From the UHGV virus genome UHGV-0071094: a stretch of DNA of 31,554 nt; one strand, 5' to 3'. How positions within the stretch are numbered: the stretch's first letter is position 1; each line of letters opens with the position of its first letter. Origin of the DNA: a virus. This document shows positions 1-24,626 of the stretch, in pieces. Under the pieces are notes generated by a model. It searched no databases. It was not told where the DNA came from and saw only the letters and a program-made list of their open reading frames with translations. The translations under genes were made by a program, and so were the position numbers.

Positions 1-95
1 CCCAAAGAATGTGATGAATGTACTCAGAAGTCTTCCTGTGCTGGTTATTTCAGTTCATCAAAAGGCCGTTTTCATCAACCACCGAGACCAATTTT

Positions 96-731
96 ATGAA
101 AAAATTTAATTTCGCTGCTCTGCTTCCGGGATTTTTAGCACTCAATAATTCTGTATGGGCAAGTGATTCCTCCACTGGTGCAAGTGATTTGCCCGGTATG
201 ACTCTTAATGAGCATGATTTAGTTATAGCTCCACTTAACACGGAAGTACCTTTCTACATTGCAGGGCATCGTAGTCATAGCTCCCATCGAAGCCATAGTT
301 CTCATAGATCTTCGTCTGGTGGTGGGTACTATGGTGGAAGCACTCCTTATTATCCTAAAACATACAGTTCACCAAGCTCATCAGGCTCATCCACTTCAGG
401 TACAAATTCGCCATCGTCTTCTTCATCTGTTCGTTCGCTTCGCTCTAATGACGCCGATGCCTCTACGACCACAAACTCTGCTGGAATGAATGGAACTACT
501 CGTGCAAGTAGTGGGCTGGCTTCTGATACTGAAAAGCGTAAGCGTTTGATCATGCGAGTGCAGTTCGCATTACTGGATAAAGGGTTTTATAACGGCAATA
601 TAGACGGAAGTATGGGGCCTGCGACACGAACTGCTATCAAAAATTACAGAGTTGCATATGGGCTTCCTACTCCAGTAAGAGAAACATTAGATGCTCAGTT
701 ATTGAACTCTTTGAATATACTGGCTCGTTAA
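96..731 (+). CDS. Secreted protein with His/Ser-rich low-complexity region and C-terminal putative peptidoglycan-binding domain
   Basis: ORF 18..731; internal Met at 96 gives a signal-peptide-like N-terminus (MKKFNFAALLPGFLALNNSVWA); HRSHSS x3 and a Ser-rich linker; C-terminal ~60 aa (RVQFALLDKGFYNGNIDGSMGPATRTAIKNYRVAYGLPT) resembles the PG_binding_1 consensus. Start codon choice is inferred. Confidence 0.55.
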   Translation: MKKFNFAALLPGFLALNNSVWASDSSTGASDLPGMTLNEHDLVIAPLNTEVPFYIAGHRSHSSHRSHSSHRSSSGGGYYGGSTPYYPKTYSSPSSSGSSTSGTNSPSSSSSVRSLRSNDADASTTTNSAGMNGTTRASSGLASDTEKRKRLIMRVQFALLDKGFYNGNIDGSMGPATRTAIKNYRVAYGLPTPVRETLDAQLLNSLNILAR

Positions 732-749
732 AATATTAGGTAAAATAGA

Positions 750-2357
750 ATGAAGATAAAACTCTCTATTTATAAAACAAAAAGGTTTAGCGATGATATT
801 GATCAGGTTTTGAATTTGGAAAGGGTCAAAAGACCTGTTGAATTCGAGATGGAGGATGCACGAGCATATCTATATGTAAAGGAGTACATGGACCCAAAAC
901 CTCCTGAATGGACCACCTTTTTTATGGACCAAAATCCTGGCATAGAACCTGATTTCTTCGGTATGAATAGTAGCACAGGAGCAGTATTAGTTATTGAAGC
1001 TAACAATTCCAGATATCTTATTCCCTTTGGAACCGGTCATCACTTAATCAATGATGGCAGCATTGTCAAAGGATTTGGGCTTAAAACAACTCTTAATAGT
1101 ATAGAACATAAAAAAATTCGCAGTTTAGATAAAGGCAGTCACAACGAAACGAACCTGTTAACTCGCAGTCAGAGCAGTAAAGAAGTCGATATATACAACC
1201 TAAAAATAGATTCTGAGATGGATATTCTCACAACTCTCACAGGCACTTCGACAGAAGATATTTTAGGAAGTAAAATTACTGGCAAAGATGCTTTTGTGAT
1301 CATGCCGGATATTGAATTGAAGGCTATTCCAGCACTATTGACCAAAATAGACTCTATTTACTTATTACCTCTTCCTGAAGAATTCGAATGGGTTAACAAT
1401 ATCAAGGAGGCTGATGAACAAGAAGTTGAGATATTGGATTCGCTTTTGATTGATCGGATAAAGGAAAAAGACTTCAATGATTTATGGCTTGGAGAGCCAG
1501 AAATAGTAGACTGGGAAAATCAAATAGGCTATTGCTTTGATAAGAGACAAAGATTCATTCATGAAACCTTATCAATATACCATGTTTGTGATTATTTTGA
1601 TGGTAAGAAAACTGAAGTAACTGTTGATGAACTCAAAAAAAATTATCTGCATGTTTTGAATGCCGATTTTGAATCGATAAAAAAATGGTCTTTATATAGG
1701 TGCCTCTATGCCGAGATAAAAGAAGGTGATCAGAACTATATTCTTCGAGACTCTATATGGTATGTTGCAGATAGGAATTTTGTATCGACTATTGATGATG
1801 AAATGAAAAAAATAATTCATTATGAGGAGTCGGATAAATTCCCTGTATATTCATATAAACGAGAGGAGGATTATAATAAAAAACTTTGCCAAGATGATAA
1901 TTCCTTTACACACATGGATCAGAAATTCATTCATCATGGTGGTGGTAAAAGTAAGATTGAATTTTGTGATCTTATCAGAGGTCAATCAGATTTTATCCAT
2001 GTAAAATATTATACTGGTTCGCAAAGTATGAGCCATCTTTTTTCACAAGGATTTATAGGTTCTGAACTTTTTATAAGTGACTCTGAATTTCGAGGCAAAC
2101 TTAATGAGAAACTACCTGCTCATATAAAATTAGCCGATCACATAAATAGACCAGATGCTAAAAAATATAAACTAGTTTTCGCCATAGCTTCTAATAAAAA
2201 TCTTCCCGAAGATTTACCTTTGTTTTCTAAAGTAAACTTGAAAAATTTCCACAAGAGTATTACCAATTTTGGGTATGAGGTCAGGATCTGCAAAATTGCT
2301 GTGGACCCAGATATTTATAAAAAGAAGCTATGTAAACCACAAAAGAACAAGCTTTAA
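750..2357 (+). CDS. Hypothetical 535-aa protein of unknown function; possible nuclease-like C-terminal region
   Basis: Long uninterrupted AT-rich ORF starting 19 bp after the stop of the upstream gene (operon-like). No canonical NTPase motif seen. C-terminal segment IEFCDL...SDFIHVKYY loosely resembles a PD-(D/E)xK-type pattern (weak inference). Confidence 0.5.
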   Translation: MKIKLSIYKTKRFSDDIDQVLNLERVKRPVEFEMEDARAYLYVKEYMDPKPPEWTTFFMDQNPGIEPDFFGMNSSTGAVLVIEANNSRYLIPFGTGHHLINDGSIVKGFGLKTTLNSIEHKKIRSLDKGSHNETNLLTRSQSSKEVDIYNLKIDSEMDILTTLTGTSTEDILGSKITGKDAFVIMPDIELKAIPALLTKIDSIYLLPLPEEFEWVNNIKEADEQEVEILDSLLIDRIKEKDFNDLWLGEPEIVDWENQIGYCFDKRQRFIHETLSIYHVCDYFDGKKTEVTVDELKKNYLHVLNADFESIKKWSLYRCLYAEIKEGDQNYILRDSIWYVADRNFVSTIDDEMKKIIHYEESDKFPVYSYKREEDYNKKLCQDDNSFTHMDQKFIHHGGGKSKIEFCDLIRGQSDFIHVKYYTGSQSMSHLFSQGFIGSELFISDSEFRGKLNEKLPAHIKLADHINRPDAKKYKLVFAIASNKNLPEDLPLFSKVNLKNFHKSITNFGYEVRICKIAVDPDIYKKKLCKPQKNKL

Positions 2358-2517
2358 ATAAATTTTTCAATGCCAGAGACGTTTGCCAGTTCATGCAGAA
2401 AATCGCTTTTGTAAGTTACAGTCCATGTATCTTGGTTTAGAACAAAGTGGTGTCAAAAAAGGTTTATGCCTTGGGAGGGAATAAGGGGCTGGGAAATTTA
2501 ACCCCTTATAGAGTTGT

Positions 2518-2738
2518 TATGCCGCAATAGCTTTAAATTTTTGAGCAATGACATAATCACTCCACCACTGCATGAGAACCATTCGTTCTGCGAGATACTC
2601 GGCACGATTATAGGCTGCAATTATTTAATCTTTCTTCGAGTGGGCAAGGGCCGCTTCTAAGACACCAGTCCTGAACTTACCAGATTCCTCTGTCGCTGTT
2701 CTCGCAATAGATCTCATTCTGTTAACCATAAGTTCACC
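2518..2738 (-). pseudogene. Remnant of a tyrosine integrase 3' end (last ~65 codons, internal TAA)
   Basis: Minus-strand translation gives ...SGKFRTGVLEAALAHSKKD*IIAAYNRAEYLAERMVLMQWWSDYVIAQKFKAIAA*, matching the C-terminal motif of P4-type integrases (compare int at 12083..13345). About 85% identical over ~170 bp to 6490..6660. Confidence 0.55.
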
Positions 2739-2856
2739 TCCTTAAACCGTTCGAATAATTACGGCTTATACTGCCTACTTATGCTAATATCTAAGAGAAG
2801 CCATTGTGGTTGTGTAAGTATACTTCTTGGTTTATTTCGACTATAGAAAACCATAC

Positions 2857-3753
2857 CTATGACTGGCTGTTTTCAGCAAGAGTCTTATCATCTAAAGAAT
2901 TTATTTTCGAAATTCTTTTTAACTCATTAAGATAATCAACCTCGTTTTCCAAGAACCAATGAAGAACTTTAGAGTTACCAAGTAATTTATTAATATATGA
3001 CTGTATTATAACGAATTTCAACATATCTGAGCCATACTCGGTTTGAAGCTTTTTTGTTTCTTCCGAAGTTGTTGCCATTTCTTGTTCCAGACGAAGTATG
3101 GTTTTTTTTATGTCCTTTTTATAGGGAGTGTTTTTCCCTTTATTTACTATCATTGATGCCGGTGTTGCATCCAAGATGCTCATTGCAAATTTTTTACTAT
3201 AATTATCAAAATTAATCATTGTACCGACTGCTTCAATTTGACGAATTGGTTTCATTTTCCTCAAAACATCAAATGTAGCCTTAGGTATAGGTTTATCAGA
3301 AAGTTTCGCAATCACACTTGGATCTATACCGTTCATTACATTAGCTTTATCTTTTATGGCATCAACAGATATGCCCAAAGCAGCACTAAGTTTTTCAATT
3401 GATACTTTTGCCAGAGACTTAATTATCATTCTATGTTCTTCAACTACATTTATATGATTCACTTGTTTGTTAGGAGTGAACGCATCATCTATGCTCGAAA
3501 GTATACATGGAGCTTTTTCTATGCCTAAATCTTTTAAAGCCTCAACCCGCAAATGGCCATCGAGTATCTTAATGGCATCTTTATCTTTGTCATAGAACAC
3601 TATTATTGGTTCAATAATACCTAAGCTTTCAATTGAGGTAACTATCTGATGATATTTATGACTTAGCTTTACATTTTCTAACAATTCCTTAGAGGGAATT
3701 AACTTGTTAGTTTCTAAATAAATAAAATTGTCGCCAAAACGTATCTGAATCAT
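2857..3753 (-). CDS. ParB/Srx-superfamily (ParB N-terminal domain-like) protein
   Basis: 298-aa ORF with ILDGHLRVEALKDLG motif typical of the ParB N-terminal nuclease-like domain; start overlaps the stop of the upstream gene by 4 nt. Confidence 0.6.
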   Translation of the reverse strand: MIQIRFGDNFIYLETNKLIPSKELLENVKLSHKYHQIVTSIESLGIIEPIIVFYDKDKDAIKILDGHLRVEALKDLGIEKAPCILSSIDDAFTPNKQVNHINVVEEHRMIIKSLAKVSIEKLSAALGISVDAIKDKANVMNGIDPSVIAKLSDKPIPKATFDVLRKMKPIRQIEAVGTMINFDNYSKKFAMSILDATPASMIVNKGKNTPYKKDIKKTILRLEQEMATTSEETKKLQTEYGSDMLKFVIIQSYINKLLGNSKVLHWFLENEVDYLNELKRISKINSLDDKTLAENSQS

Positions 3754-4646
3754 TTTGATGCCTCTTTGTTTATTGGATTGAGGATCTGAGATGGCAGTTC
3801 TGATAGATTCTCTTGTTCAAGTATATTTTGAAAGCTTTTATTCATCATTATGACGTTAAAAATCTCATTTACTATCAGCAAGTTAGTTTTAATAAATTTA
3901 GAGTTGTTATAAACAGATTTATGTTCAGCGATACTATTTTCATAAAGCTCAATTAACTCCTCAGCAGTCATTCTTTTTGATGGTTTGTGATAATAAAACC
4001 CGGCTGCTTTTGCACCTTTATTCCCAATTGTTCGCTGATTTAGAATGTGTTTTATCTTTATAATGTCCCGGCTTTTTATTAATTTTTTATCATATGCTTC
4101 GGTAAGAATATCTTGTGCTTCTTCAGTGTCACATCTTGCAAATTGTACTGCGAGATACAGAGGCAAATTCCCCCGTTCGACTGCAGAGAGAAGTTTATGC
4201 TCTCCCTTATCAAGAAGCATATTTATACTGCTCACCCAGTTCGATGAATACCCAGTAATCTCACTTATTTCGGAGTCTGAAAGTCCTCTGTTTTTCATAT
4301 CTTTTATTATCTGTAATAACTCATTGGAACGTGGTCTCCTCCTTGCAATGTTTTCAACCAAACTCATAACATAAGCATCTTCTTCTGATACATCTCTTAT
4401 AATTGCTGGAATAATGGTTTCACCTAATGCAACGAGCGCCTCTATTCTCCCTTGGCCACAAATTAAAGCATATTTGAAGTCGTCTTCATCAATCGCTCTT
4501 ACGCTTATAGGCTTGCTTAACCCTCTTTTTTTTATGCTTTCCTTAATTTCTTCATGCACTACCTTATTTCTAGTTCGCGGGTTAAGAAATTTTATTTTGG
4601 CAATTTCAATTTGGATTATTGGGAATTCATTTGATTCAGGCAGCAT
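3750..4646 (-). CDS. ParB/RepB-like protein (ParB N-terminal domain)
   Basis: 298-aa ORF; GQGRIEALVALG and VENIARRRPR motifs resemble ParB box regions; overlaps the upstream recombinase gene by 11 nt. Confidence 0.6.
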   Translation of the reverse strand: MLPESNEFPIIQIEIAKIKFLNPRTRNKVVHEEIKESIKKRGLSKPISVRAIDEDDFKYALICGQGRIEALVALGETIIPAIIRDVSEEDAYVMSLVENIARRRPRSNELLQIIKDMKNRGLSDSEISEITGYSSNWVSSINMLLDKGEHKLLSAVERGNLPLYLAVQFARCDTEEAQDILTEAYDKKLIKSRDIIKIKHILNQRTIGNKGAKAAGFYYHKPSKRMTAEELIELYENSIAEHKSVYNNSKFIKTNLLIVNEIFNVIMMNKSFQNILEQENLSELPSQILNPINKEASK

Positions 4647-6192
4647 ATAGTTCCCTCACTTTCATGCGAGTAATAATTTGTAGAAGTTTATCCAGATTAT
4701 CAAATCTATAGAGATCTAATCGAATGTTGTTTGTTTCCGTCATCCACATTTTACTATATTCGTTTTCAATCTTTGGTATGATATAAAAATCAAGTGGTGA
4801 AATATTTTGTGAATCCATTCGTATAACAATTGTTATGTCTGCTTTCTGTGAGTTATCAAACCGGACTTTCCATCTGAGTTTACCCGATTTCATATGTGTG
4901 CATTTAGTAATAAGGACGGAAATTAAAAACTCATCATTGATGTAAAGCATTGGTGCATATTTATATTCGTCTATATAGCAGTTGCTTTTTAAAATTTCCC
5001 CCTTAAAATCCTCAATTATGCCTGAGTAAAATGATCTTAGTGCTTCATTTATTTGGATATAGCTGTAATCATGTTCTGGCTTATAACCAATCAAAGTATA
5101 TGCTCTTAAAAGACCACCAAATCGGGTTCTGTAAACAGAAGATGAAGGGCCTGTATCATCTTCATCAATGATAAAGCCAGATAGTTTTCCATTAGATTCT
5201 AATTTTTGTTTTAGCTTTTCTAAAAGCTCTTCATTAGTCAAATGTACGGATCGGAGCTGAATTATTTCTTGAGCTTTATTATATTTTTTCTTTGAAATAA
5301 TGGGTTTATATGCCTTGTCGCATCTAACCCATTCATTTTTTGGGTTTTTTACAAGCCTACTTTTTAGTTTAGATGAGGTTTTGTTATATATGTTATTTCC
5401 AATATATTTTTCATTTGTCAAGATTTGATGTATTTTTGCACGAGTCCATAGTGTTCCATTTTCTGCAGGTATATTCTGTTCATTTAGTCTCTCAGCAATA
5501 ATGAATTCTGGCATGTTATCATCTATAAAGAGATCATAGATGCTATTTACAATTTTTATCTCATTTTTTGGTCCCGGAATTAATATCACCCTATCTGTTT
5601 GAATACTCTTTCTTTTGCGGAAGCCCAATATTTCTTTAGCTATGCCATTTTCATCTACTAAAAGACGTCTTAGCCCATAACCAGCCATTCCGCCTTGATG
5701 ATAACCAAGCTTTATTAAATTTGCTTGCCCTATAAATACCTTTTCTGATAAATTCCTGCTGTGATATGCAGCACTAGATCTTTTTATATTCAGTATAACA
5801 GAAGACTCTAAAGGGAAATCTTTAGTGGGAATAGGTTCGGAACAGTATATAAGATCTACACCGTTTCTCTCAAATAGAAAGGAATAATATGCAGCTTCAT
5901 CACTATTTTGAAAACGACCAAAACGGCTCACATCATAAAATAATACAGCCTGTATATCTATTTTCTTTTGTTCTACATCACTAAGTAACTGCTGCAAAGA
6001 ATGCCGGCCTATGATACTGACTCCGCTCTTACCTGCATCATCGTAGGTATAAGCGATTTCCATATTGTTCTTTTCAGCATAATCTTTGATATATTCGGAC
6101 TGATTATGTAAAGAATATTGCTGATGGTCGGTAGACATCCGCAAGTACTGTGCGACCCTAACTTTATGATTTTTATCATTTTCGCTAGCCAT
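4636..6192 (-). CDS. Large serine recombinase (resolvase N-terminal catalytic domain plus recombinase domain)
   Basis: 518-aa ORF; N-terminal VAQYLRMSTDHQ motif with catalytic Ser as in the resolvase/invertase domain; size and C-terminal extension typical of large serine recombinases. Confidence 0.8.
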   Translation of the reverse strand: MASENDKNHKVRVAQYLRMSTDHQQYSLHNQSEYIKDYAEKNNMEIAYTYDDAGKSGVSIIGRHSLQQLLSDVEQKKIDIQAVLFYDVSRFGRFQNSDEAAYYSFLFERNGVDLIYCSEPIPTKDFPLESSVILNIKRSSAAYHSRNLSEKVFIGQANLIKLGYHQGGMAGYGLRRLLVDENGIAKEILGFRKRKSIQTDRVILIPGPKNEIKIVNSIYDLFIDDNMPEFIIAERLNEQNIPAENGTLWTRAKIHQILTNEKYIGNNIYNKTSSKLKSRLVKNPKNEWVRCDKAYKPIISKKKYNKAQEIIQLRSVHLTNEELLEKLKQKLESNGKLSGFIIDEDDTGPSSSVYRTRFGGLLRAYTLIGYKPEHDYSYIQINEALRSFYSGIIEDFKGEILKSNCYIDEYKYAPMLYINDEFLISVLITKCTHMKSGKLRWKVRFDNSQKADITIVIRMDSQNISPLDFYIIPKIENEYSKMWMTETNNIRLDLYRFDNLDKLLQIITRMKVRELYAA

Positions 6193-6489
6193 GCACGAAA
6201 CCTCATGGATGATTCAATACAATGTAGATGATAAAATTGATCAATTTCTAACCAATTTCAACTGTTTTATCATTGATTAGAGCGAATTTAGTAAATCTTC
6301 GAGGTGTATGATAATCGAGAAGATATGTGAATTATGTAGCTGATATGACCAACAGCTTTCGGTATGTGGCCTCAAGTTACCCATCCGTAAATGGCTATGC
6401 TTAGTCAACATTTGTTAATATGTGTGATTATAATTCTTTAACTAAATCAAGATAGTTAACCCATCAGGGGAGAGTTATGCGGCAATAAC

Positions 6490-6955
6490 TTAGCATTTTT
6501 GAGACGCAACATAGTCACTCCACCATTGCATGAGAACCACCCGTTCTGTGGGATATTCTGCACGATTGTAGGCTGCAATTATTTCATCTTTCTTCGAGTG
6601 GGTAAGGGCGGCTTCGAAGACATCAGTCCTAAACTTTCCAGACTCATCAGCAGCATCGCATACCGTGAGCTACAAGCTTACCTCCGAACCCCATACGGAT
6701 TATGGCCGCATTAGCTGTTTGCTCATGCATATGGTTAAGAGGAGCCTTTATGCTTGGAAACACCCATTCACGATGCCCACTTATCACTTTCATTGACTCT
6801 AGGACTCGTAAAGCTTCTTTGCTTAGTGGAACTTTGTGAGGCTTCTTCATTTTCATAAACTCAGCCGGGATGTTCCACATACCAGTTTCTATATCAATAT
6901 CTGTCCATCTTGTGCGAACCGCTTCAGCGGGCGAACCCATGTTAGAAGTTGCCAC
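6490..6955 (-). pseudogene. Truncated, frameshifted tyrosine integrase (C-terminal catalytic half only)
   Basis: ORF 6647..6955 encodes an integrase catalytic-domain segment (WTDIDIETGMWNIPAEF...HREWVFPS...AHGMR). The C-terminal ...DESGKFRTDVFEAALTHSKKDEIIAAYNRAEYPTERVVLMQWWSDYVASQKC* continues in another frame (about 14-nt deletion relative to the copy at 2518..2738). The N-terminal ~220 codons are absent. Confidence 0.7.
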
Positions 6956-7377
6956 TCAATCAGTAGCCTTGTTTCTAACCGGATAGAAGCATTGTTTAGA
7001 GCAACTAGGAAGCGGGGGGATTACTGTTTCTGGTAAAGACTCTTTTGGTGGTGAACTGGACGCCTGGAATCAATATGAGAAAACTACTTAGTGCAACAGG
7101 AGCTGAATTAACTAATGGTGTAACATTACCTAGTGGTTGGCTTGTCAGTGGTATGAGCAAGGGAGCCAATAATCCTGAAAATTTAAGAGCGTTTGCTGTT
7201 TGTATGAGACAATGGCAGCATAAAAATTCTAGGATAAACTTTTGCCTTAATTAAAATGATAGGTGGTATATTTATAGGGGTTATCTTAGGAAGAATATTT
7301 TTAATGCTATTGATGAGAAGTATCGGACATGATTTAATGTTGTTTATGTTTTAGAATTCTCATATTCAGGCGGTTTC

Positions 7378-7743
7378 ATGATAAAACAGAAGTTAAAGAA
7401 TGACTGGGATATTCCTGCAATTCTTCGTCTTACTAAAGAACAAAAAAGGCTAAAATTGTCTGTTCAAGAAGTTGCAGACCTTCTGGACTTAAGCTCATAC
7501 TTTTTTGAGTTAGCTGTCGATGAGAAGGTGGATTTCAAATTTTATGACCTTCCTGAAAAGGTTAAAAAAAAGCTGCATTATGCAGGTTTTGATATTTTCT
7601 ATTTAATGACTGGTGAGTATTCAGGTAGTGAACCGGCATTGAAAATCGCCAGTTTTGAATATTCTATAAAGGATATGTCTCCTGAAGAAAAAAATGAAGT
7701 GAGAGTGTTGATAGAAAATATACCGATAACAAAACCACACTAA
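7378..7743 (+). CDS. Hypothetical 121-aa protein
   Basis: AT-rich ORF with no recognised domain; weak RBS; immediately upstream of a membrane protein gene. Confidence 0.4.
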   Translation: MIKQKLKNDWDIPAILRLTKEQKRLKLSVQEVADLLDLSSYFFELAVDEKVDFKFYDLPEKVKKKLHYAGFDIFYLMTGEYSGSEPALKIASFEYSIKDMSPEEKNEVRVLIENIPITKPH

Positions 7744-7812
7744 AATTACCTTTAATCCTATCATGTTATATTGGTAGGAAAAATTAGAACGTAATGATAT
7801 TGAGGTATAATC

Positions 7813-8436
7813 ATGGCCTTATCATCTGTAGCTATTGTGGCTGGTGTAGCTACTTTGGCAGCATCTCTTTTCAAAAATACAGAACTTCGGGTGATAGATA
7901 TCGTTGAGTTGTCAAAGCTCAGTGTTAACGATATTGAAAACAACCCTCAGTTAAAAATTGTCAAAAATGATATTAATGAACATATAACAGGCATTAAAGA
8001 CCCTGCATTTCATGAGGTTCTAATTGAAATTATGGCTAAGCATAATAAACCTGTTGGTTACTTCAAAAAAGTTGATGGTAGGTTGCAGTATGACCATTCC
8101 TATTATATTTCAATTAATAAGATGGGCTGGGGGCAATACATTAAAAAGTTAATTAATAATCCAAATGATTGGGTTGCAACTTTGATATATGTTATTTTTA
8201 TTATAACAATGTTCGGAATAGCAGTAGATCTTGATAAGGATCCACAAACATTTAATCAAGGTCTGTCTATATTTTTATCAGGTATGGGGGGATTAATGTT
8301 TAGCTTTTTATTAAAAGGCTTATCGGTTCAATGGAGAAATAGCTTTCATAATGTCAAGGATTTCGAATATAAAGAATTGTTTAAAGAGTACGCTAACAGT
8401 AAAATAGATGAAATCATATCATCAAACTCTAAATAA
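7813..8436 (+). CDS. Hypothetical membrane protein (207 aa)
   Basis: GAGG RBS 6-8 nt upstream; hydrophobic segments (ALSSVAIVAGVATLAASLF; WVATLIYVIFIITMFGIAV; LSIFLSGMGGLMFSFLL) suggest about 3 transmembrane helices. Confidence 0.5.
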   Translation: MALSSVAIVAGVATLAASLFKNTELRVIDIVELSKLSVNDIENNPQLKIVKNDINEHITGIKDPAFHEVLIEIMAKHNKPVGYFKKVDGRLQYDHSYYISINKMGWGQYIKKLINNPNDWVATLIYVIFIITMFGIAVDLDKDPQTFNQGLSIFLSGMGGLMFSFLLKGLSVQWRNSFHNVKDFEYKELFKEYANSKIDEIISSNSK

Positions 8437-8539
8437 TGATTCGGAATCATTTCTACCGTTGGCTGGGGTACATAAAAGCGTAATATTTTTATTCATTCTG
8501 ATAAAGCCAAGTCACATGGCTTGGCTTCAGATATATTGA

Positions 8540-8872
8540 TTAAGTATTATCTTTAATCGTTGTTGTTGTTCCGTTGGTTTTCACGGAAGCGATACCTTTT
8601 TCACGGGATTGTTTGGTCGAGTACATCTGGCTTGTACCGATCACATGATGATTAGCCGCCCGTAGGTTAAAATAGGACTTGCCGTTAGATGAGTCTTTCA
8701 GATCGTAGCGTTCATCAAGTGGGCTGTTTGCCTGAACTGATATAATGCCATTTTCTGCAGAACTCTTGGTTGTGTAAAGCTCGCTGGTGAGGATAATTTC
8801 TCCATTACCGGCTTTCAGAACAAATTTATACTGTTCATTACTGCTCTTATCCAATTCGAACCAACCAGCCAT
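8540..8872 (-). CDS. DUF1508 (YegP-like) tandem-repeat protein
   Basis: 110-aa ORF with two internal repeats (...YKFVLKAGNGEIILTSELYTTKSSAENGIISVQ / ...YFNLRAANHHVIGTSQMYSTKQSREKGIASVK) characteristic of the DUF1508/UPF0339 family. Confidence 0.65.
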   Translation of the reverse strand: MAGWFELDKSSNEQYKFVLKAGNGEIILTSELYTTKSSAENGIISVQANSPLDERYDLKDSSNGKSYFNLRAANHHVIGTSQMYSTKQSREKGIASVKTNGTTTTIKDNT

Positions 8873-9650
8873 ATTAACTCCTTGATAAAGTTGTGATTTT
8901 TACGGCCCAGTGATGAAGAACGAAGCGGGCAAGTTCAGTATGCCTGAAACAAAAATTGTTTCCAATATGTTATGTTTGTATCGGTAGCTGGGAACAAGAC
9001 TACACACTACGAAATGAGGCTTAGCTGTCGCCCACCAGTGTTGGCAGGTATGCCTTAGTGGGAGTCTTAGAGCGGAGGGTATCTTGAATCAATGTCTATT
9101 GCCATATTTACACGACACACGATATATTTTCTTTAGAGTCATATCTTAGGAAACAATAACGGCGACTTGAGCAAAAGTATCTAATATCAATAGATTTTCG
9201 TTAATTTAAAAAAATAGGTGCTCTCTCATAAAATCTGTAGGGTACTTGGTCGTGAATAAATTGCTGAGTTCATGTTGCGATGTCATTATTTGTCATCTTC
9301 CATGTCTCATAATTATCCTAACGTATAGGTTCAATGAAATTCCTTTATTCCTGTGTCTAATCTAATCAATCTAGCAATCTAACCAAACCTGTGTGTGGCG
9401 ATTTTACCTTGTTTAAATGTTCTAGGAATGCCTTTATCTTTTAGTATTAATTATATTAAAGGTTTACTTTCACGATGAGTATTTGCTGTTTCATCGGGAG
9501 GTTAAGATATTCATAATCTATCCTGACTGTAACGAAGATTAATCATTGATTTTATTTATATGTGAAAAAATCACTTTAAATATTGATTTTTTATGATTTA
9601 TGTAGTTTAATTTAAATGTATAGGTGATTTTTTCACATTGGAGAGGTGCT

Positions 9651-11009
9651 ATGTTAATCAGATTCTCAGTCGAAAACTACAAGTCATTCAGAGATAGAGT
9701 CGAGTTTTCAATGGTTTCGAGTAAAGTTCGAAGCCATCCATCACATGTCGTTAAGGCAACTTCTGCGAACGATATAAGTGTGTTAAAAGTTGGAGTTATC
9801 TATGGAGCTAATGCTTCTGGTAAATCCAACATCATCAAAGCAATGAAACATGCTCAAAATATGATTTTGAAAGGAAGTAAAGCTGGTACTAACCTTCCCT
9901 ATGCACCTTTCAGGCTTGATGATGATTTTGAAAAGAAACCCAGCAGATTTGAATTTGAAATTAAAATCAATGGCAAGAACTATGCATATGGATTCTCAGC
10001 TGATCAAAAATCCATTAAAGAAGAGTGGTTGTATGAAATAAACAAGAAGGATGACATTCTTATTTATGAAAGAAGTAATACAACTCACTTTAAATTTGAA
10101 AACATAAAATTTAAAAATGAAGAAGACGAACAATTCCTAAACTTTACAGCAAGAGGAACAAGCGAAAACTCTTTGTTTTTGTACGAATGTTTTGATAGGA
10201 ATGTTCTGAAGGATTTGAATTACATTGTACCAATTTCTGATGTTTTTAAATGGTTTAAAGCTAAGTTACAAATAGTTTTCCCGAATTCTAAATATAGAGA
10301 CCTAGATTTTGGATCTGCTTCTGATGAAAAAGAAGGAGAGCTTATAACTGATATTCTAAAAGATTTTGATACCGGTGTGTCAAAGTTAGTATTAAGAAAA
10401 GTTAGTTCATTTGATGATATAAAACTTCCTCCCAATTTCAAGGACCAGATCATAGAGGATCTTAAATCTAGTAAGGCTGTTGTAATTTCAGGGCCAAGAA
10501 ATAAACGATATAAAGTTGAACTGGGTGAAGATGGAGAAATAACGGTATTTCAATTGATGACGGCCCATAAAGATAAAAATGGTGATGATGTATATTTTGA
10601 ACTCAACCAGGAATCAGATGGTACACAAAGACTTTTTGATATTATACCTGGATTAGTCGAACTTATGTTGAAAGACAAAGTTTATATAATTGATGAAATT
10701 GATCGTAGTTTGCATCCAAAGATTACAAAAACATTTATGAAATTATTCTCTATGAAAACTGTCGGTAAAGACAGTCAACTGATAGTCACCACTCATGAAA
10801 CCGGTCTTTTAGATTTTGAACTTATACGAAGAGATGAGGTTTGGTTTACTGAAAAAAATAAAAGTGGAATTTCGAGAATTTATTCACTCGAAGAATTCCA
10901 GCCTAGGTTTGATAAAGATATACGTAAAGGTTACTTAGTGGGGCGTTTTGGTGGAATTCCTAAAATAAAGAATATATTATCAAACGTTGAAGATTTTCAG
11001 AAGGACTAA
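9651..11009 (+). CDS. ABC/SMC-like AAA ATPase (OLD/AbiLi-like ATPase component)
   Basis: Walker A GANASGKSN; Walker B-like VYIIDEIDRSLH; GGAGAGG RBS before the ATG at 9651 (ORF track start 9624 is less likely); stop 2 bp before the next gene. Confidence 0.7.
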   Translation: MLIRFSVENYKSFRDRVEFSMVSSKVRSHPSHVVKATSANDISVLKVGVIYGANASGKSNIIKAMKHAQNMILKGSKAGTNLPYAPFRLDDDFEKKPSRFEFEIKINGKNYAYGFSADQKSIKEEWLYEINKKDDILIYERSNTTHFKFENIKFKNEEDEQFLNFTARGTSENSLFLYECFDRNVLKDLNYIVPISDVFKWFKAKLQIVFPNSKYRDLDFGSASDEKEGELITDILKDFDTGVSKLVLRKVSSFDDIKLPPNFKDQIIEDLKSSKAVVISGPRNKRYKVELGEDGEITVFQLMTAHKDKNGDDVYFELNQESDGTQRLFDIIPGLVELMLKDKVYIIDEIDRSLHPKITKTFMKLFSMKTVGKDSQLIVTTHETGLLDFELIRRDEVWFTEKNKSGISRIYSLEEFQPRFDKDIRKGYLVGRFGGIPKIKNILSNVEDFQKD

Positions 11010-11011
11010 AA

Positions 11012-11668
11012 ATGCCTCGTGAAAGAAGAGAGTTTGACAGAAGAAGTGGGGTAAAAGACCCGTCTTTAATTGTAATTGCTTGTGAAGGAGAGAAAACAGA
11101 GCAGGACTATTTCAATAGTATATCGGAACTATGTGATGAGTTAGGATCACGTTTACAACTTAAAGTTCTCCCGCCGCGAGAAGAGGGGCATAGTGCGCCT
11201 AGACATGTTTTAGACCAAATGGATAAATATAAAAAAGAATTTGGAATTAAAGTGAATGATGAATTATGTCTGGTAATCGATAGGGATAAACAATCATGGA
11301 CAGAGGCTACTATAAGTGAAGTTGCTCAGTTTTGTCATGCCAAACAATATATTCTGGCTTTAAGTAATCCATGTTTTGAATTATGGCTTCTTATACACCA
11401 TTATGATGTAATGCTCCTCGGTGAGGATGAAAAAAGAAGTATTTTAAGAAATAAAAATGGGTATATGAAAAGCAAACTACGGGATGTTATTGGACAATAT
11501 AACCCAAGTTCTATTAATATTCATGATTTCTGGGGGGTAACTGAAATCGCGATTGACAGAGCTAAACGTTTAGATGTTAATCCAGCTGAGAGATGGCCTA
11601 ATGAAATAGGAAGTCGTGTGTATATAATCATGGAGAAAATACGTCAGTCAATTAATAATCAATTATAA
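11012..11668 (+). CDS. RloB-like / Toprim-domain protein (putative nuclease partner of the ATPase)
   Basis: 218-aa ORF; N-terminal IVIACEGEKTE and downstream LVIDRDKQ give a Toprim-like E...DxD signature; translationally coupled to the ATPase gene. Confidence 0.6.
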   Translation: MPRERREFDRRSGVKDPSLIVIACEGEKTEQDYFNSISELCDELGSRLQLKVLPPREEGHSAPRHVLDQMDKYKKEFGIKVNDELCLVIDRDKQSWTEATISEVAQFCHAKQYILALSNPCFELWLLIHHYDVMLLGEDEKRSILRNKNGYMKSKLRDVIGQYNPSSINIHDFWGVTEIAIDRAKRLDVNPAERWPNEIGSRVYIIMEKIRQSINNQL

Positions 11669-12082
11669 TTATCCTATGTATTCCTTCGCATTTATTCCAT
11701 GCTTTAATAAGTGTATAAGGTTTTAGCTAAGTTGATTTTTTTATTGACTTGGCTTTTTTGTGTCTGGTTTGATGGTCTAGTTATGAGTGTAGGTATTTTT
11801 CGATTAAAGCGTATATCTTGATTTTTATATTAAGAATCATTCCTGATTTCTACTGAAGCCAAGAGAAAATTATTAATATATTTCATAGGATGATTTTGAA
11901 TTAGGATCTAAACAATAAGATATGGTTCACGTAAATTTATTTTGCTGGAGTGATAACTCGATTGGGTGTTTATTGAGGGGGGGCAAAAATATTGGTTTGA
12001 CATTATTATTACTACCTTTTTTTGTTTCTTTGCTCAGTGTTTACGTTGCTTTTTAGCGTGCAAAAAATAGAGAACTATTATA

Positions 12083-13345
12083 CTAATTCATTTTCTTTAT
12101 TCTCTGGGCGAATTCAAACGGTGTAATGTGTTCTTTTCTGTTGGCATTAAGGTAGTCAGCCCACCATTGTAACATGAGTTTTCTCTCTTCGAGATGTTCC
12201 GCTTTGTGGATATATGCTGCCCGAACCGAGTTACGCTCTTGGTGGCTCATTTGACGTTCTACGGCGTCTCTTGACCATAACCCAGATTCGATTAATGCAC
12301 TACAAGCCATAGTTCGAAAACCGTGACCACAAACTTCAGCTTTCGTGTCGTAACCCATGGTGCGAAGAGCCTTGTTAACAGTGTTTTCGCTGATTGGTTT
12401 GTCATCGCGACTAAAACCAATGAACATAAGATCCTTTTCTCCACTTATAGCTTGGAGCCTTTTAAATAATACTACAGCCTGCTTACTTAGCGGCACAAGA
12501 TGAGGGGTTTTCATTTTTGAGCCCCTATTTGAATACTTAACCCCCTCCAATTCTCGTCTTTCTGCAGGGATTGTCCATAAGGAGTTTTTGAAATTCACCT
12601 CAGACCAACGAGCGAATCTAAGTTCACTTGAACGGATGAAAGTCAGTAGAGTTAATTGAACTGCTATTTGAGTGATACCTTTCCCTTTATAGGCATCAAT
12701 CCGTTTGAGAAGCTCAGGAAGTCGTTCGAGGGGAAGGGCAGGGCGGTGATTACTCTTGGCAGTGGTTACAGCGCCTGCGAGGTCGTAAGCTGGGTTTTGG
12801 TCAATCAAAGCATTGTGAACAGCATACCGCATGATGGCAGTGATTCTTTGTTGTAAACGGGCAGCAAGTTCAAGATGTCCAGTTTCCTCTGCTTTTTTCA
12901 GAGGAACAAGTAAATCACGAGTTTTAAGCTCACTAATGTTCCGCTTACCGATAACAGGAAATACATGAGTGATCAGGCTGTTTAATACGGTAGTTCTGTG
13001 ACTGTCTGACCAGGTTCTGTTGCTTGAGTGCCAGTCTCTGGCAACAGTTTCAAAAATGAGTAAGCCTTTCTCTTCAATCTTTTCTGTTTTTCGCTTTTCG
13101 CCAGGGTCAACATTGTTGGCAATGAGTTGCCTTGCTTCTTCTCTTCTACGACGAGCTTCTGCTAAAGACACTTCGGGATAAACACCAAGCGCCAACATTT
13201 TTTGCTTACCAGAAAAGCGATATTGAAGCCGCCAGTATTTTGAACCCGTAGGGTGAACCAGGAGATGCATACCATCCCCATCTGTTAACTTGACGGGCTT
13301 TTCAGTAGGTTTCGCATTTCTGACTTTTACCTCAGTTAGTGCCAT
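12083..13345 (-). CDS. P4/CP4-57-type tyrosine integrase (Arm-DNA-binding DUF4102 plus catalytic domain)
   Basis: 420-aa ORF; N-terminus MALTEVKVRNAKP...KLTDGDGMHLLV...GSKYWRLQYRF typical of the P4-like integrase arm-binding domain; C-terminal HGFRTMA...AAY...LMLQWWADYL catalytic motifs. Sits at the AT-rich/GC-normal boundary. Confidence 0.9.
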   Translation of the reverse strand: MALTEVKVRNAKPTEKPVKLTDGDGMHLLVHPTGSKYWRLQYRFSGKQKMLALGVYPEVSLAEARRRREEARQLIANNVDPGEKRKTEKIEEKGLLIFETVARDWHSSNRTWSDSHRTTVLNSLITHVFPVIGKRNISELKTRDLLVPLKKAEETGHLELAARLQQRITAIMRYAVHNALIDQNPAYDLAGAVTTAKSNHRPALPLERLPELLKRIDAYKGKGITQIAVQLTLLTFIRSSELRFARWSEVNFKNSLWTIPAERRELEGVKYSNRGSKMKTPHLVPLSKQAVVLFKRLQAISGEKDLMFIGFSRDDKPISENTVNKALRTMGYDTKAEVCGHGFRTMACSALIESGLWSRDAVERQMSHQERNSVRAAYIHKAEHLEERKLMLQWWADYLNANRKEHITPFEFAQRIKKMN

Positions 13346-13520
13346 TGTGACCTCCTGATGATGGTATCTGCATTATCGAACTTACAATACCAACAGTTAT
13401 ACCAACAAAACAAGCTGGATGTCCGTATATCCCAACAGTCCTTGGTAGACCATGGTTAAAGTGTACTTCATTGAAATGATTGGGAAAAATAGACTTTGAT
13501 ATACTTCGGTAGACAGGGTT

Positions 13521-13536
13521 CTGGCGTCCCCTGCAG
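13521..13536 (-). other. Candidate prophage attR core (tRNA 3'-end-like sequence)
   Basis: Minus strand reads CTGCAGGGGACgCCA, resembling the acceptor-stem 3' end plus CCA of tRNA-Arg (argW as I recall it: ...CCTGCAGGGGACACCA); located between the excisionase and the next integrase, where an attR is expected. Confidence 0.4.
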
Positions 13537-13609
13537 ACATCTACTTGAGGCAGCAGGGGATTGATTAGAATGGTATTTTTTAGATGTGAGAAATATTTTA
13601 CCCGCTATT

Positions 13610-13810
13610 TTACCCATTGGCGCGGCTTAAGAGCTTATTTTTGAATTCACAATGGTCACGATATAACCATCTTGCTCGCCCGTGGATAACTTTGGCTTTA
13701 GGCAGGTCTCCGGACTTAATCCGGTCATAGATGAAGGTTTTACCGAAGCCAGTATCGGCCATGATGAATTTCAAATCAACCAGGGAATCAGGCTGTAGTT
13801 CGTGTTGCAT
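13610..13810 (-). CDS. torI: AlpA/TorI-family excisionase (winged-helix recombination directionality factor)
   Basis: 66-aa ORF (MQHELQPDSLVDLKFIMADTGFGKTFIYDRIKSGDLPKAKVIHGRARWLYRDH...) with AlpA-like HTH; position at the prophage end opposite the intS-like integrase matches the KplE1 layout. Gene symbol by analogy, not verified. Confidence 0.75.
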   Translation of the reverse strand: MQHELQPDSLVDLKFIMADTGFGKTFIYDRIKSGDLPKAKVIHGRARWLYRDHCEFKNKLLSRANG

Positions 13811-13828
13811 GAGTGCTATCTCCGAATA

Positions 13829-13844
13829 GGGAATCGAACCTGCA
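13829..13844 (-). other. tRNA T-arm-like 16-mer (TTGCAGGTTCGATTCC) immediately upstream of the excisionase gene
   Basis: Minus-strand sequence matches the T-stem/T-loop (GGTTCGATTCC) region of a tRNA and diverges where the acceptor 3' strand would begin. Confidence 0.45.
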
Positions 13845-13852
13845 AATCAGGC

Positions 13853-13876
13853 AAGAAAAAACCGCCATCAGGCGGC
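13853..13876 (-). terminator. Rho-independent terminator-like hairpin with U-run (minus strand)
   Basis: GCCGCC-TGAT-GGCGG stem-loop followed by TTTTTTC on the minus strand, overlapping the stop of the small ORF upstream. Confidence 0.4.
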
Positions 13877-14035
13877 TTGGTGTTCTTTCAGTTCTTCAAT
13901 TCGAATATTGGTTATGTCTGCATGTGCTATCTGCGCCCATATCATCCAGTGGTCATAGCAGTCATTGATGTTCTCTGCTTCGATAACTCTGTTGAATGGT
14001 TCTCCATTCCATTCACCTGTGACTCGGAAGTACAT
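13868..14035 (-). CDS. Small hypothetical phage protein (55 aa)
   Basis: Minus-strand ORF MYFRVTGEWNGEPFNRVIEAENINDCYDHWMIWAQIAHADITNIRIEELKEHQAA preceded by a GGAGA RBS; below the ORF-track size cut-off; the overlapping plus-strand ORF 13802..14050 is judged spurious. Confidence 0.35.
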   Translation of the reverse strand: MYFRVTGEWNGEPFNRVIEAENINDCYDHWMIWAQIAHADITNIRIEELKEHQAA

Positions 14036-14222
14036 TTATCATCTCCATAAAACAAAACTCGCCGTAGCGAGTTCAGATAAAAGAAATCCCCGCGAATGCG
14101 AGGATTGTTAGTTGCGCTCTGCTGCTGCCTTAGCCATTACCATATCCACCAAACTTCACCAGACATGATTCTCGCAATCACTATCATCACCAAAGTGATA
14201 ATCACAACTTTAACTGGCGGCA

Positions 14223-14951
14223 TCATTCACCATCCTGCTGCGGTGCTGCTGGCAGTGGCATCCAGTGGGTAATACTACCTGGATATAAACTCTTTGCTGG
14301 CCCCCAGTAGCCATCTGTATTAACACGCATAACCTCACAGCCATCAAAACCATCAGTTACAAGAACGTATTCATAAGGTTCCGGCATCCTTTCGCTTACC
14401 GGAATCCAACTATCCGGAGTTCCCGGAGAGTTGCCATTTACATCGAAGTTTGGCTCTGCGTCCTGAACCAGGAGGATGTAACCATTCTTGGCTGTATCAA
14501 GTTCTAACGCCTCGGTGACGGTGCCGAAATAGCGATTGCCTAAATCAGCATCACAAGTGCTTACATCAATGGAAACTTCCATGCCCTCGATTAATTCTGG
14601 CAAGTTGTAAGTTTGGCTTACAGGTTCGGCTTCCAGTTCTGCTATGCGCTTTTTTGCTGCTTCCAGCTCGCCAAGCAGCGCCAAGACGGTAGCCGGATTG
14701 GCTGCGGCGATGAATTCAGCATTGGCCTGCTGTTCCATTTGGAAATCTTCATCGAAACCGCTTTCAGGATGCGCTCCTTCAATTCTGCAAATGGGAATAT
14801 ATCCAGCAGCCTCGCGATGAATTAGCGCATCATCACAATCAAATCGGCTCTCTCCATATTCGAGCGACCACTCACCACACGTTGCTTTTTCTGCCGCTTC
14901 ACGCAGTGCCTGGTAATTAATTTCGCTCACTGTTTGCCTCCTTTGCGCCAC
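14223..14951 (-). CDS. Ead/Ea22-like protein with C-terminal DUF551 domain
   Basis: 242-aa ORF; C-terminal ...[35 protein letters not shown]...THWMPLP resembles DUF551; typical lambdoid early-left accessory gene. Confidence 0.7.
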
Positions 14952-15550
14952 ATCGCATTCAGATATTTGTTGTCATTAACAGAACCGAAACTCTTTCTTT
15001 TAAGCAATTCCTCTCTCGATGGCATTGGCTTTACGCGTTGGCGAATAATCATTTCTGCCGGAAGAATGCCGGGATTGTATGCAAGTCCTCTCATGGTAAA
15101 TTCCTCAGTCATTACTGATAGCGCCATAGCGTGAGCGGTAATTACGCAGGCGCGGGTCAATTTCAGGGAAGTGGGTATATCTGCATCTTTCGCATCATCA
15201 ATGCCGAACAAACCATTGAGGCAATACTTGCGTGCATAAGAGCTTGTAGCTCCAGTAACTTGTGCAGAATCCATTCCTTTCTTGCTTTCTTCCTCTCGTG
15301 CAAGAGCGGTTGCCGTATGACTGTTTTCGCCATCGGTAATAGTTGCCGTGGCTTTCACATAATACCGATCACCAATCAACACAACTTCATCGCTGATTGA
15401 TAAAAACAGGCCATTCAGTAGCGGCTTAACGCCTTCAAGAATATCTTCGCAGCTTCTGTATTTATATTTACCGAATGAGTTGTACTGATTTTTTGGCGCG
15501 TTCAGATTCTCCTGAATGGCAGCCAGTCTTGCGTAAAATTCTTTGCTCAT
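14927..15550 (-). CDS. erf: ERF-family single-strand annealing protein (P22 Erf-like)
   Basis: Translation from the internal Met ([45 protein letters not shown]...) closely resembles phage P22 Erf as I recall it; the ORF-track start 15580 probably over-extends. Confidence 0.8.
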
Positions 15551-15651
15551 ATGATTGTTCTCAGAATGGACATGGCCCAAGGAAATAACGCTGATTTAAT
15601 ACTTCGACTCGGGACAAGTTAAGGCATACCCGCATTCCTTCGCGGTCACCA

Positions 15652-15810
15652 TTATGGCGATACCAGAGAGCTTTCTGCGTGTACATGCGTCTCTGTAACT
15701 TGCTCTCCTTCACTGTGGTTGCAAGTGACATGAATATCTCCTTCGTTACCGATTAATTCTTTCATCTGACGAATGAATTCTTCGTCTGACCAGTTATCTG
15801 TAAAACTCAT
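15652..15810 (-). CDS. Small phage protein (52 aa) in the Arf/early-left position
   Basis: Minus-strand ORF MSFTDNWSDEEFIRQMKELIGNEGDIHVTCNHSEGEQVTETHVHAESSLVSP; its ATG overlaps the stop of the upstream small gene (ATGA). Confidence 0.4.
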   Translation of the reverse strand: MSFTDNWSDEEFIRQMKELIGNEGDIHVTCNHSEGEQVTETHVHAESSLVSP

Positions 15811-15959
15811 TTCCTGCGATACCATGGAAGGTTGATAGCTAATTTCATCTCTTTATTTGCTTCAAGCCACATTTTGGAATCACCAATAAATCTGGCTATT
15901 ACTGCTTTGTTTTGTGCTGCTCGAAGCATCTGGTGATTGATGGCTATTTCATTGCGCAT
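15807..15959 (-). CDS. Kil-like small protein (50 aa)
   Basis: Minus-strand ORF MRNEIAINHQMLRAAQNKAVIARFIGDSKMWLEANKEMKLAINLPWYRRK; the ...RFIGDSKMW... segment resembles lambdoid Kil as recalled; assignment tentative. Confidence 0.35.
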   Translation of the reverse strand: MRNEIAINHQMLRAAQNKAVIARFIGDSKMWLEANKEMKLAINLPWYRRK

Positions 15960-16078
15960 AACGCCTCCAGTTGTTTCTTTGCTGCTCTGATTAATTGTTT
16001 AACTCGGCGTGATAATTCAGATTCGTGCGGGTAGAAAGCGGACATGACGCCGCTACCCGCGAGCTGAAAGTGCATCAT
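15944..16078 (-). CDS. cIII-like small protein (44 aa)
   Basis: Internal start of ORF 15944..16183 gives MMHFQLAGSGVMSAFYPHESELSRRVKQLIRAAKKQLEALCAMK, resembling lambda CIII (..AG....ESxL.R....L); AAGGAG RBS upstream. Confidence 0.4.
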   Translation of the reverse strand: MMHFQLAGSGVMSAFYPHESELSRRVKQLIRAAKKQLEALCAMK

Positions 16079-19341: not shown

Positions 19342-19343
19342 CC

Positions 19344-20036: not shown

Positions 20037-20045
20037 GGGGTAATC

Positions 20046-23290: not shown

Positions 23291-23314
23291 CGTATGGGGA
23301 ATTGGATTCAATCG

Positions 23315-23704: not shown

Positions 23705-23719
23705 TTTAAGCCCTTATTG

Positions 23720-24306: not shown

Positions 24307-24328
24307 GCCATCACTCCAAGTTAGTGTA

Positions 24329-24380: not shown

Positions 24381-24396
24381 ATATTGTGAGGTGAAC

Positions 24397-24558: not shown

Positions 24559-24626
24559 AGTTGAAGCCCCAACTGCTGTAACAGTCAGGGCTTCGGCATC
24601 AACAAATCGGATTAGGAAATATTGAC

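Follow-up and report, generated by a model that had tools for sequence, protein, structure and literature searches.

A mobile gene pair centred on an unclassified family of membrane proteins in enterobacterial defence islands

In an AT-rich island of Escherichia coli, a 121-aa ORF (ORF1) is followed by a 207-aa ORF (ORF2) encoding a membrane protein, and an initial annotation of this DNA had taken the two for a small regulator plus membrane effector, a layout met in abortive-infection and toxin-type systems. The question that the locus raises is whether the two genes really form such a pair, and what the membrane protein might be doing in a defence island. We examined it in the window, i.e., the whole stretch of 31,554 nucleotides of the virus genome UHGV-0071094, and in the relatives of both genes. 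The genes that matter here are located as follows.

2857–4646, minus strand: two ParB-like genes
4636–6192, minus strand: serine recombinase gene
6647–6955, minus strand: decayed tyrosine integrase gene (partial Phage_integrase match; a frameshifted pseudogene in RefSeq)
7063–7215: last 51 codons of a gene for a 451-aa protein, a remnant just upstream of the pair; intact in Raoultella planticola, upstream of the same pair
7378 (ATG) to 7743 (stop), plus strand: ORF1, 121 aa, RefSeq hypothetical protein WP_047672375.1
7813 (ATG) to 8436 (stop), plus strand: ORF2, 207 aa, RefSeq hypothetical protein WP_001218588.1
8540–8872: YegP/DUF1508 gene, convergent with ORF2, between the pair and AbiL
9624–11668: AbiLi/AbiLii genes (AAA_21 and RloB; PADLOC 3e-91 and 3e-23)
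12083–13345: intact integrase gene

Every coordinate and length that the initial annotation gave for the two ORFs and the 69-bp spacer between them proved correct. The same was true of its placement of the pair between a decayed integrase and an ATPase/Toprim module, which corresponds to AbiLi/AbiLii, and of the good ribosome-binding site that it saw ahead of the longer gene: direct reading gives GAGGT at 7802–7806, 6 nt 5' of the ORF2 ATG.

ORF1 and ORF2 are genuine genes under purifying selection, not chance ORFs. For ORF1, dN/dS was 0.09 between E. coli and Citrobacter koseri (dS 1.1), and for ORF2 it was 0.18–0.34 over five lineages. Of 5426 complete E. coli genomes, 43 contain, always on the chromosome, a 1.4-kb stretch with the pair at ≥99% identity, and positions 1–13536 of the window match E. 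coli strain I2 at 99.99% identity. A literature search on the two RefSeq accessions returned no paper mentioning either, and a keyword search did not find a description of the ORF2 family.

The surrounding 12 kb have a GC content of 31–36%. The E. coli island is integrated at a tRNA-Arg gene, which we take to be argW, beside yfdC, and it contains a relaxase pseudogene; in the window, a P22/Sf6-like prophage region follows the island in place of the tRNA. The integration site with its adjoining prophage, the YegP/DUF1508 gene and the 51-codon remnant had all gone unremarked in the initial annotation.

When the window was compared with a C. koseri element by blastn, the only stretch in common (78.5% nucleotide identity, with unrelated flanks) comprised both genes together with 87 bp upstream and ~150 bp downstream. 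The comparison with Raoultella gave a larger common block, 7061–11860, at 93.6% nucleotide identity. The limits of the mobile cassette and its candidate signals are as follows.

7291–8589, plus strand: mobile ORF1–ORF2 cassette
7310–7338, plus strand: candidate sigma-70 promoter, TTGATG-17 nt-TTTAAT, found by eye in a stretch conserved in E. coli, Raoultella and C. koseri
7756–7779, plus strand: spacer hairpin/palindrome TCCTATCA-N8-TGGTAGGA, predicted in all three lineages
8504–8527, no strand assigned: inverted repeat AAGCCAAGTCA / TGGCTTGGCTT, within the cassette and between the convergent ORF2 and yegP; a candidate bidirectional terminator

An automatic promoter and terminator scan of 6900–9700 stayed below the number of sites that chance would give and called nothing ahead of ORF1. 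The candidate promoter was missed because it matches 8 of 12 consensus positions, which is under the threshold of the scan, and the inverted repeat went uncalled because it has no T-run. The spacer hairpin is retained in C. koseri, where one pair has changed on both sides (U-A to C-G) and two others on a single side, with pairing preserved; the z-scores of the fold (–1.6, –2.0 and –0.1) are weak. Co-transcription of the two genes is probable, and the cassette appears to carry both a promoter of its own and an inverted repeat after the genes.

The ORF1 product is predicted to be soluble and all-helical, with a pI of 5.7 and no hydrophobic segment. The initial annotation had recognised no motif in it, and we likewise found no meaningful match in Pfam, NCBIfam, PADLOC or the PDB sequences, only a weak likeness to XRE-type helix-turn-helix (HTH) domains. 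When ORF1 was aligned by hhalign to nine XRE sequences (a hand-assembled template), residues ~16–42 fell on helix 1–helix 2–turn in a short match of 27–28 columns, with a probability of 55–57% and a score of 27.2; none of 200 column-shuffled controls reached that score (mean 10.4, maximum 18.1). By eye, the ...DIFYLMTGE ending, which includes the YLMTGE motif at residues 75–80, fits the usual close of such domains. Taken together, these comparisons make ORF1 a probable degenerate XRE-type HTH regulator. It resembles the XRE regulators found ahead of defence or toxin genes, such as HipB, the C-proteins and repressors of the CapH type, in being small, upstream and co-oriented, besides the helix 1–helix 2–turn likeness and the YLMTGE ending, but it lies below detection by all Pfam and NCBIfam HTH models, and it would have an unusually hydrophobic recognition helix, SSYFFELAV.

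A search of four ORF1 family members with the Pfam HTH models gave nothing at E ≤ 10, in scans whose filters drop most matches above ~0.1. In the Pfam, NCBIfam, PHROG and PADLOC scans of both proteins, single family members included, the sole match below E 0.01 was that of ORF1 to a PHROG CII-like regulator (E 0.0051); it spans 18 residues and is too short to use. The AlphaFold2 (AF2) model of ORF1 is of low confidence (pLDDT 40), and a fold search with it returned nothing significant; CENP-B and a lambda-repressor-like protein appeared among its six non-significant matches and were not counted as HTH evidence. ORF1 is rarer than ORF2: its relatives amount to 6 clusters in 5.8 billion proteins (E. 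coli, Raoultella, C. koseri and fragments), and a scan of metagenome contigs added one more, on a short contig.

About three transmembrane (TM) segments had been expected in the 207-aa protein, and ORF2 indeed has three hydrophobic segments (~1–22, 118–142 and 146–171), all conserved over 13 diverse family members. On the basis of hydropathy and Lys/Arg distribution, the protein, encoded on the plus strand, would consist of TM1 (~1–22), a conserved domain of ~95 aa (23–117), a TM2–TM3 hairpin (118–171) and a conserved C-terminal helix (172–207). Conservation is highest in the N-terminal helix, which is rich in Ala, Gly and Ser, and in residues 20–95; the invariant residues include F20, K21, N55, T59, G60, D63, H67, K79 and F84. 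The hairpin is conserved in hydrophobicity and not in sequence; in the C-terminal helix, it is the sequence itself that is kept (EY..LF.EY...K).

In all 13 members, Lys/Arg clusters lie after TM1, before TM2 and after TM3 and are absent from the TM2–TM3 loop. Applying the positive-inside rule to this distribution, we infer an N-out, C-in topology, so that the conserved domain and the tail are predicted to be cytoplasmic. The same clusters, and the lack of a positive N-region, led us to reject secretion of ORF2 by way of a cleavable signal peptide. The AF2 model of ORF2 has helices at 4–19, 120–140 and 144–206 and a pLDDT of 59; since the models of both proteins are poor, fold searches with them carry no information.

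Profile and structure searches on ORF1 and ORF2 yielded no relative of known function. ORF2 had no match at a meaningful level in Pfam, NCBIfam, PHROG or PADLOC; its PHROG matches began at E 0.13, and those of a BFVD fold search at E 1.6. Membership of a known transporter family, which would have told against the effector reading of the initial annotation, was not found: matches to transporter and channel models of Pfam were sub-threshold and non-recurring (Got1 at E 0.036; others in 1–2 of the 13 members), and there was no PDB sequence match. Searches of the PDB sequences with three profiles gave chance hits only (E 0.06 for an aryldialkylphosphatase, E 0.36 for a phage neck protein).

The ORF2 family is tiny. 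A filter-only HMM search found 12 representatives in 1.84 billion representative proteins, and a profile search found 36 clusters in 5.8 billion proteins, in which all named organisms are Enterobacterales. Among 185,579 species-representative genomes, a single one carried a family member (a locus in Ewingella). ORF1 and ORF2 were absent from the phage, viral-contig and plasmid collections; for ORF2, these were 50,697 phage records (searched by tblastn), IMG/VR contigs and 72,556 plasmids.

Within its own clade, the ORF1–ORF2 pair is one transferable unit. Every ORF1 homologue has an ORF2 homologue 66–73 bp downstream, at 19 loci in four lineages (E. coli; Raoultella with related metagenome contigs; C. 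koseri; and the metagenome contig L050), and the pair is found behind three unrelated upstream settings. These are the 451-aa ORF of Raoultella, of which E. coli keeps the remnant; a putAbiC-like gene immediately upstream in C. koseri; and a divergent gene for a 253-aa membrane protein immediately upstream in L050. In Raoultella, Shufflon_N and pilin genes lie near the pair.

Outside that clade, co-conservation of the two genes, which the pair reading of the initial annotation presupposed, breaks down. ORF1 is found with the closest ORF2 clade only, and 31 of the 50 ORF2 loci compared, in several genera, are without it. Some of these homologues (51–59% identity; Pantoea stewartii and Ewingella-like genomes) stand alone, as single-gene islets of 33% GC inside flanks of 52–58% GC. 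Near them, tblastn at E ≤ 10 and an HMM search with --max revealed no trace of ORF1, and their dN/dS against the E. coli-clade genes is 0.18–0.29.

At 29–37% identity, other ORF2 clades have other upstream genes, namely a trypsin-like protease, a DUF2971 protein (in P. jejuense), SymE (in P. ananatis) and an unrelated multi-pass membrane protein (in Brenneria). In Phytobacter and Pectobacterium brasiliense, the gene for this protease, of 264 aa, precedes the ORF2 homologue by 57 bp, and in Enterobacter ludwigii and Pantoea DY-15 remnants of it lie ahead of the homologue. The protease scores 24.5 bits against Trypsin_2, under the 27.6-bit cut-off, with His and Ser motifs seen by eye, and its nearest PADLOC models are LmuA-protease and RT-protease. 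In most loci a frameshift, a truncation or an IS insertion has disrupted the protease gene, while the ORF2-like gene is intact, with a dN/dS of 0.18–0.26. The 264-aa protease, SymE, and the 425-aa and 206-aa proteins of C. koseri showed no relationship to ORF1 or ORF2.

Because other clades lack ORF1 or have other upstream genes, a strict dependency between regulator or antitoxin and effector is unlikely. The stand-alone homologues, and the intact genes beside decayed partners, argue instead that ORF2 is the autonomous, selected core and that its partners are exchangeable or dispensable. ORF1 is then a lineage-specific accessory and, most likely, regulates transcription instead of serving as an obligate antitoxin. 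Of the reading as a small regulator plus membrane effector, then, what stands is the cassette behaviour, the HTH-like ORF1 and the residence in defence islands; what does not is the strict dependency and the co-conservation over the wider family.

Of 12 informative contexts for ORF2-family members, at least 8 have known defence genes within 8 kb. These genes are AbiLi/AbiLii in E. coli and Raoultella, with an AbiJ-like gene as well in the latter; in C. koseri, the putAbiC-like gene; in Phytobacter, Gabija GajA/GajB; in Pectobacterium, a TIR protein matching PDC-S66/ThsB; in Enterobacter ludwigii, an HNH type IV restriction enzyme, SymE and SNF2; in Pantoea ananatis, McrBC; and in Brenneria, Lamassu LmuA/LmuB. 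Three contexts (P. stewartii, Ewingella-like and Pantoea DY-15) had no known defence gene nearby. By PADLOC, the protease partner of the sister clade itself resembles Lamassu and RT-associated protease effectors, and trypsin-like domains are among the frequently repurposed defence modules (bioRxiv 10.1101/2025.09.30.679545).

PADLOC-DB v2.0 gave no match for ORF1, for ORF2 or for four of five distant ORF2 homologues; the fifth (P0050) had a chance-level match to ZorC (E 0.0064, 13 bits). Several ORF2-family copies are located on mobilisable elements of the MobA/MobL type. Residence in defence islands is guilt by association, given that AT-rich cargo of many kinds gathers at the same hotspots.

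As judged by sequence, the cassette falls outside the known systems to which it can be likened, wherever membership was testable. Like RexAB of phage lambda and similar two-gene Abi systems, it combines a small cytoplasmic partner with a multi-pass inner-membrane protein, on a mobile element and in a defence context. However, PADLOC detected no sequence similarity to RexAB; ORF2 has three TM segments and a 95-aa domain predicted to be cytoplasmic, whereas RexB has four TM segments; and ORF2 homologues exist without a partner, whereas Rex needs both proteins.

Both ORF2 and the SLATT/2TM effectors of CBASS-like and retron systems have a TM hairpin with a helical tail behind it in the cytoplasm, joined to a sensing part that varies, and both are associated with defence islands. 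This likeness is in layout only: the SLATT_1–6 and DUF4231 models matched none of 13 ORF2 members at E ≤ 5, in scans whose filters drop most matches above ~0.1, ORF2 has an extra N-terminal TM helix, and no nucleotide-signal synthase is consistently nearby. Pairs of a gasdermin and a protease recall the sister clade (Phytobacter, Pectobacterium, E. ludwigii and Pantoea DY-15), where the protease gene, if intact, directly precedes the membrane-protein gene. A difference from gasdermin is that ORF2 is a helical, integral membrane protein. The E. coli cassette also lacks a protease, and most sister-clade loci have kept the membrane gene while their protease decayed.

We tentatively favour a reading in which the mobile cassette combines a new, self-sufficient membrane-acting protein of the defence type (ORF2) with a lineage-specific XRE-like regulator (ORF1). 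The 1.3-kb cassette would move among the defence islands of integrative and mobilisable elements of enterobacteria. The conserved domain and C-terminal helix of ORF2 would be held in the cytoplasm by the N-terminal helix, whose wealth of small residues would suit helix packing, and by the TM hairpin, and ORF2 alone would act at the membrane against phage. Possibly, the cytoplasmic domain senses some infection cue, upon which the TM helices permeabilise or depolarise the membrane in an abortive infection, the mechanism we would favour; alternatively, ORF2 might block an envelope step of infection. ORF1 would regulate transcription of the cassette, with no obligatory role as an antitoxin. A bolder form of this proposal, which we regard as unlikely, makes the whole family a self-sufficient, single-gene anti-phage sensor-effector of the membrane, confined to Enterobacterales, acting by abortive infection or exclusion and furnished with exchangeable upstream modules: the XRE-like regulator in one clade and, in another, a Lamassu/RT-type protease that may activate the ORF2 homologue by cleavage, in a loosely gasdermin-like manner.

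Other explanations were weighed against the favoured one. ORF2 might have nothing to do with defence and be an accessory envelope or membrane protein (serving, e.g., in stress, adhesion or maintenance of the element), with ORF1 as its local regulator and the defence islands as mere common hotspots for AT-rich DNA. This is doubtful, albeit quite conceivable: neither protein resembles PADLOC defence proteins, several copies sit on MobA/MobL-type elements or beside pilus genes, and some homologues are found beside Hcp or amid metabolic genes (in P. stewartii, between those for cytochrome bd and an amidohydrolase), but it has to contend with the recognised defence genes in at least 8 of the 12 informative contexts and with a clade tightly paired, over a 57-bp gap, with a protease of the defence-effector type. 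A classical toxin–antitoxin or addiction module, with ORF2 as a membrane toxin and ORF1 as antitoxin and autorepressor stabilising the island, seems rather unlikely. It would explain why ORF1 is always accompanied by ORF2 and is under strong purifying selection (dN/dS 0.09), and the gene order is that of HipBA-type modules, where an HTH gene precedes the effector gene. Yet no toxin–antitoxin family model matches either protein, and toxin and antitoxin of a type II module should co-occur obligately, whereas ORF2 dispenses with ORF1 in 31 of 50 loci; homologues are stably kept without ORF1 or any other small partner, or intact beside a decayed one, and would therefore not be lethal alone.

Tolerance of ORF2 alone would suit a superinfection or entry exclusion protein, which would spare the cell and, at the inner membrane, stop either the injection of phage DNA or conjugative entry, like P22 SieA, T4 Imm or TraS/Eex, as would its small size, its inner-membrane location, its carriage by mobile elements and the type IV pilus/shufflon genes adjoining it in Raoultella. 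We consider this quite improbable, since the conserved domain is predicted to be cytoplasmic and not periplasmic, homologues are lacking in the phage records, IMG/VR contigs and plasmids searched, and pairing with a protease of the cytoplasmic type in the sister clade is hard to reconcile with it. Finally, it is highly improbable that ORF1 and ORF2 are accessory parts of the neighbouring AbiL system. The ORF1–ORF2–yegP–abiLi–abiLii block is 93.6% identical at the nucleotide level between E. coli and Raoultella, but this sharing goes back to one recent transfer. In E. coli, the same 43–44 genomes have both the cassette and AbiL, so that this species gives no independent information. A convergent yegP separates the two units, C. 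koseri has the cassette without AbiL or YegP, and AbiL is found in no other ORF2-family context; we rejected the cassette as a part of AbiL because C. koseri and all distant contexts are without AbiLi/AbiLii.

ORF1 and ORF2 make up a real cassette that had not been described before, and the unclassified membrane-protein family at its centre is a plausible candidate for a role in defence. If ORF2 turns out not to be a defence protein, the locus would show that a regulator plus membrane-protein layout in a defence island is insufficient to call an abortive-infection or toxin–antitoxin system. ORF2 is one among many such candidates, made somewhat more appealing by its small size, its rarity and the clear variation of its partner genes. 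The hosts of the family include clinical E. coli, Raoultella and Citrobacter as well as the plant pathogens Pectobacterium, Pantoea and Brenneria. If ORF2 is a defence protein, it would represent a new and very compact membrane-acting immunity gene without homology to known systems, and the swapping of the upstream gene by clade (HTH protein, protease, DUF2971 protein or nothing) would be a clean, small case of modular defence evolution.

Directly upstream of ORF1, the putative HTH-type gene of the cassette, lies a small open reading frame whose full-length counterpart is intact in Raoultella:

7063-7215 of the window, plus strand: remnant of a 451-aa ORF
L018 (Raoultella) 6486-7841: the intact 451-aa ORF

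The remnant is 78% identical to the 451-aa ORF across its last 51 codons. Because genes for Shufflon_N and N_methyl pilin proteins lie close to the intact copy in Raoultella, the E. coli block probably originated in an element, conjugative or mobilisable, that carried a type IV pilus region. The decayed integrase near the remnant could be a shufflon-type recombinase.

Comparison of E. coli with Raoultella shows that a third component was transferred together with the cassette and the downstream AbiL gene pair, a gene that is convergent to the one for ORF2, the three-TM inner-membrane protein:

8540-8872, minus strand: YegP/DUF1508 gene (Pfam 8e-43; phrog_1422 6.5e-49)

This gene is absent in the Citrobacter koseri copy. 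The start of AbiLi (9624-11009) is ambiguous: the ORF listing begins at the GTG at 9624 and gives 461 aa, RefSeq has a protein of 432 aa, and other gene calls give 452 aa.

The spacer between ORF1 and ORF2 contains a stem-loop with an 8-bp stem and an 8-nt loop:

7756-7779 of the window: spacer stem-loop
L015 (C. koseri) about 7946-7969: the corresponding stem-loop

In C. koseri the stem is kept despite sequence divergence: one pair differs on both sides (U-A to C-G), and two more differ on one side only. The element could serve in mRNA processing or attenuation, or be an operator palindrome.

The C. koseri cassette is flanked as follows:

L015 4503-6981: one flank of the cassette
L015 9334-10884: the other flank

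Uncharacterised candidate systems appear to be densely packed in this island. The surroundings include a 425-aa putAbiC-like protein, a downstream pair of 115 aa and 400 aa that weakly matches M78-peptidase and ABC-3C CTD6, and a 206-aa protein for which homology to ORF2 was not detectable despite a similar layout (one TM segment at the N-terminus, then a soluble central part, and further TM segments at the C-terminus).

One homologue of ORF2 and one E. coli copy appear broken:

L017 8001-8639 (Ewingella americana E4, species-representative genome): reading frame lost past about codon 19
L030 8427-8915 (E. coli CP044021.1): truncated

The loss of frame in Ewingella reflects either a frameshift or a sequencing error; the homologue is intact in metagenome copies of identical context (L002-L009). 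In E. coli CP044021.1 the genes for AbiL and the integrase likewise went uncalled; the truncation is therefore probably due to an assembly rich in errors, not to true decay.

Among the distant, 216-218-aa homologues of ORF2, the gene 57 bp upstream, where intact, encodes a 264-aa trypsin-like protease, whose closest PADLOC models are LmuA-protease and RT-Protease_XI:

L036 5150-5944 and L040 5149-5943: intact protease
L039, L041, L042, L032-35 and L049: protease remnants

The protease is intact at only two of the loci compared, being frameshifted, truncated or IS-interrupted elsewhere; the membrane gene is intact at loci where the protease has decayed.

The region to the left of the cassette (18-6192 of the window; L001 6135-14993) contains a His-Xaa-Ser radical-SAM cluster, hxsDBCA, followed by another gene:

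750-2357: TIGR04141/DUF6119 protein

Beyond it, on the opposite strand, are two ParB/RepB-like genes and a large serine recombinase. Together, these genes are an unusual cargo for one island. No tRNA was found within the window. On the right, identity to E. coli I2 ends 15 nt inside a tRNA-Arg gene, and another region begins:

13537-31554: P22/Sf6-like prophage region

Its genes include Ead/Ea22, ERF, a phage stabilisation protein, tail needle, gp7 and ejection proteins, a Bro-N/P22 antirepressor and a tailspike head-binding domain. Island and prophage therefore lie in tandem at one shared tRNA-Arg site.
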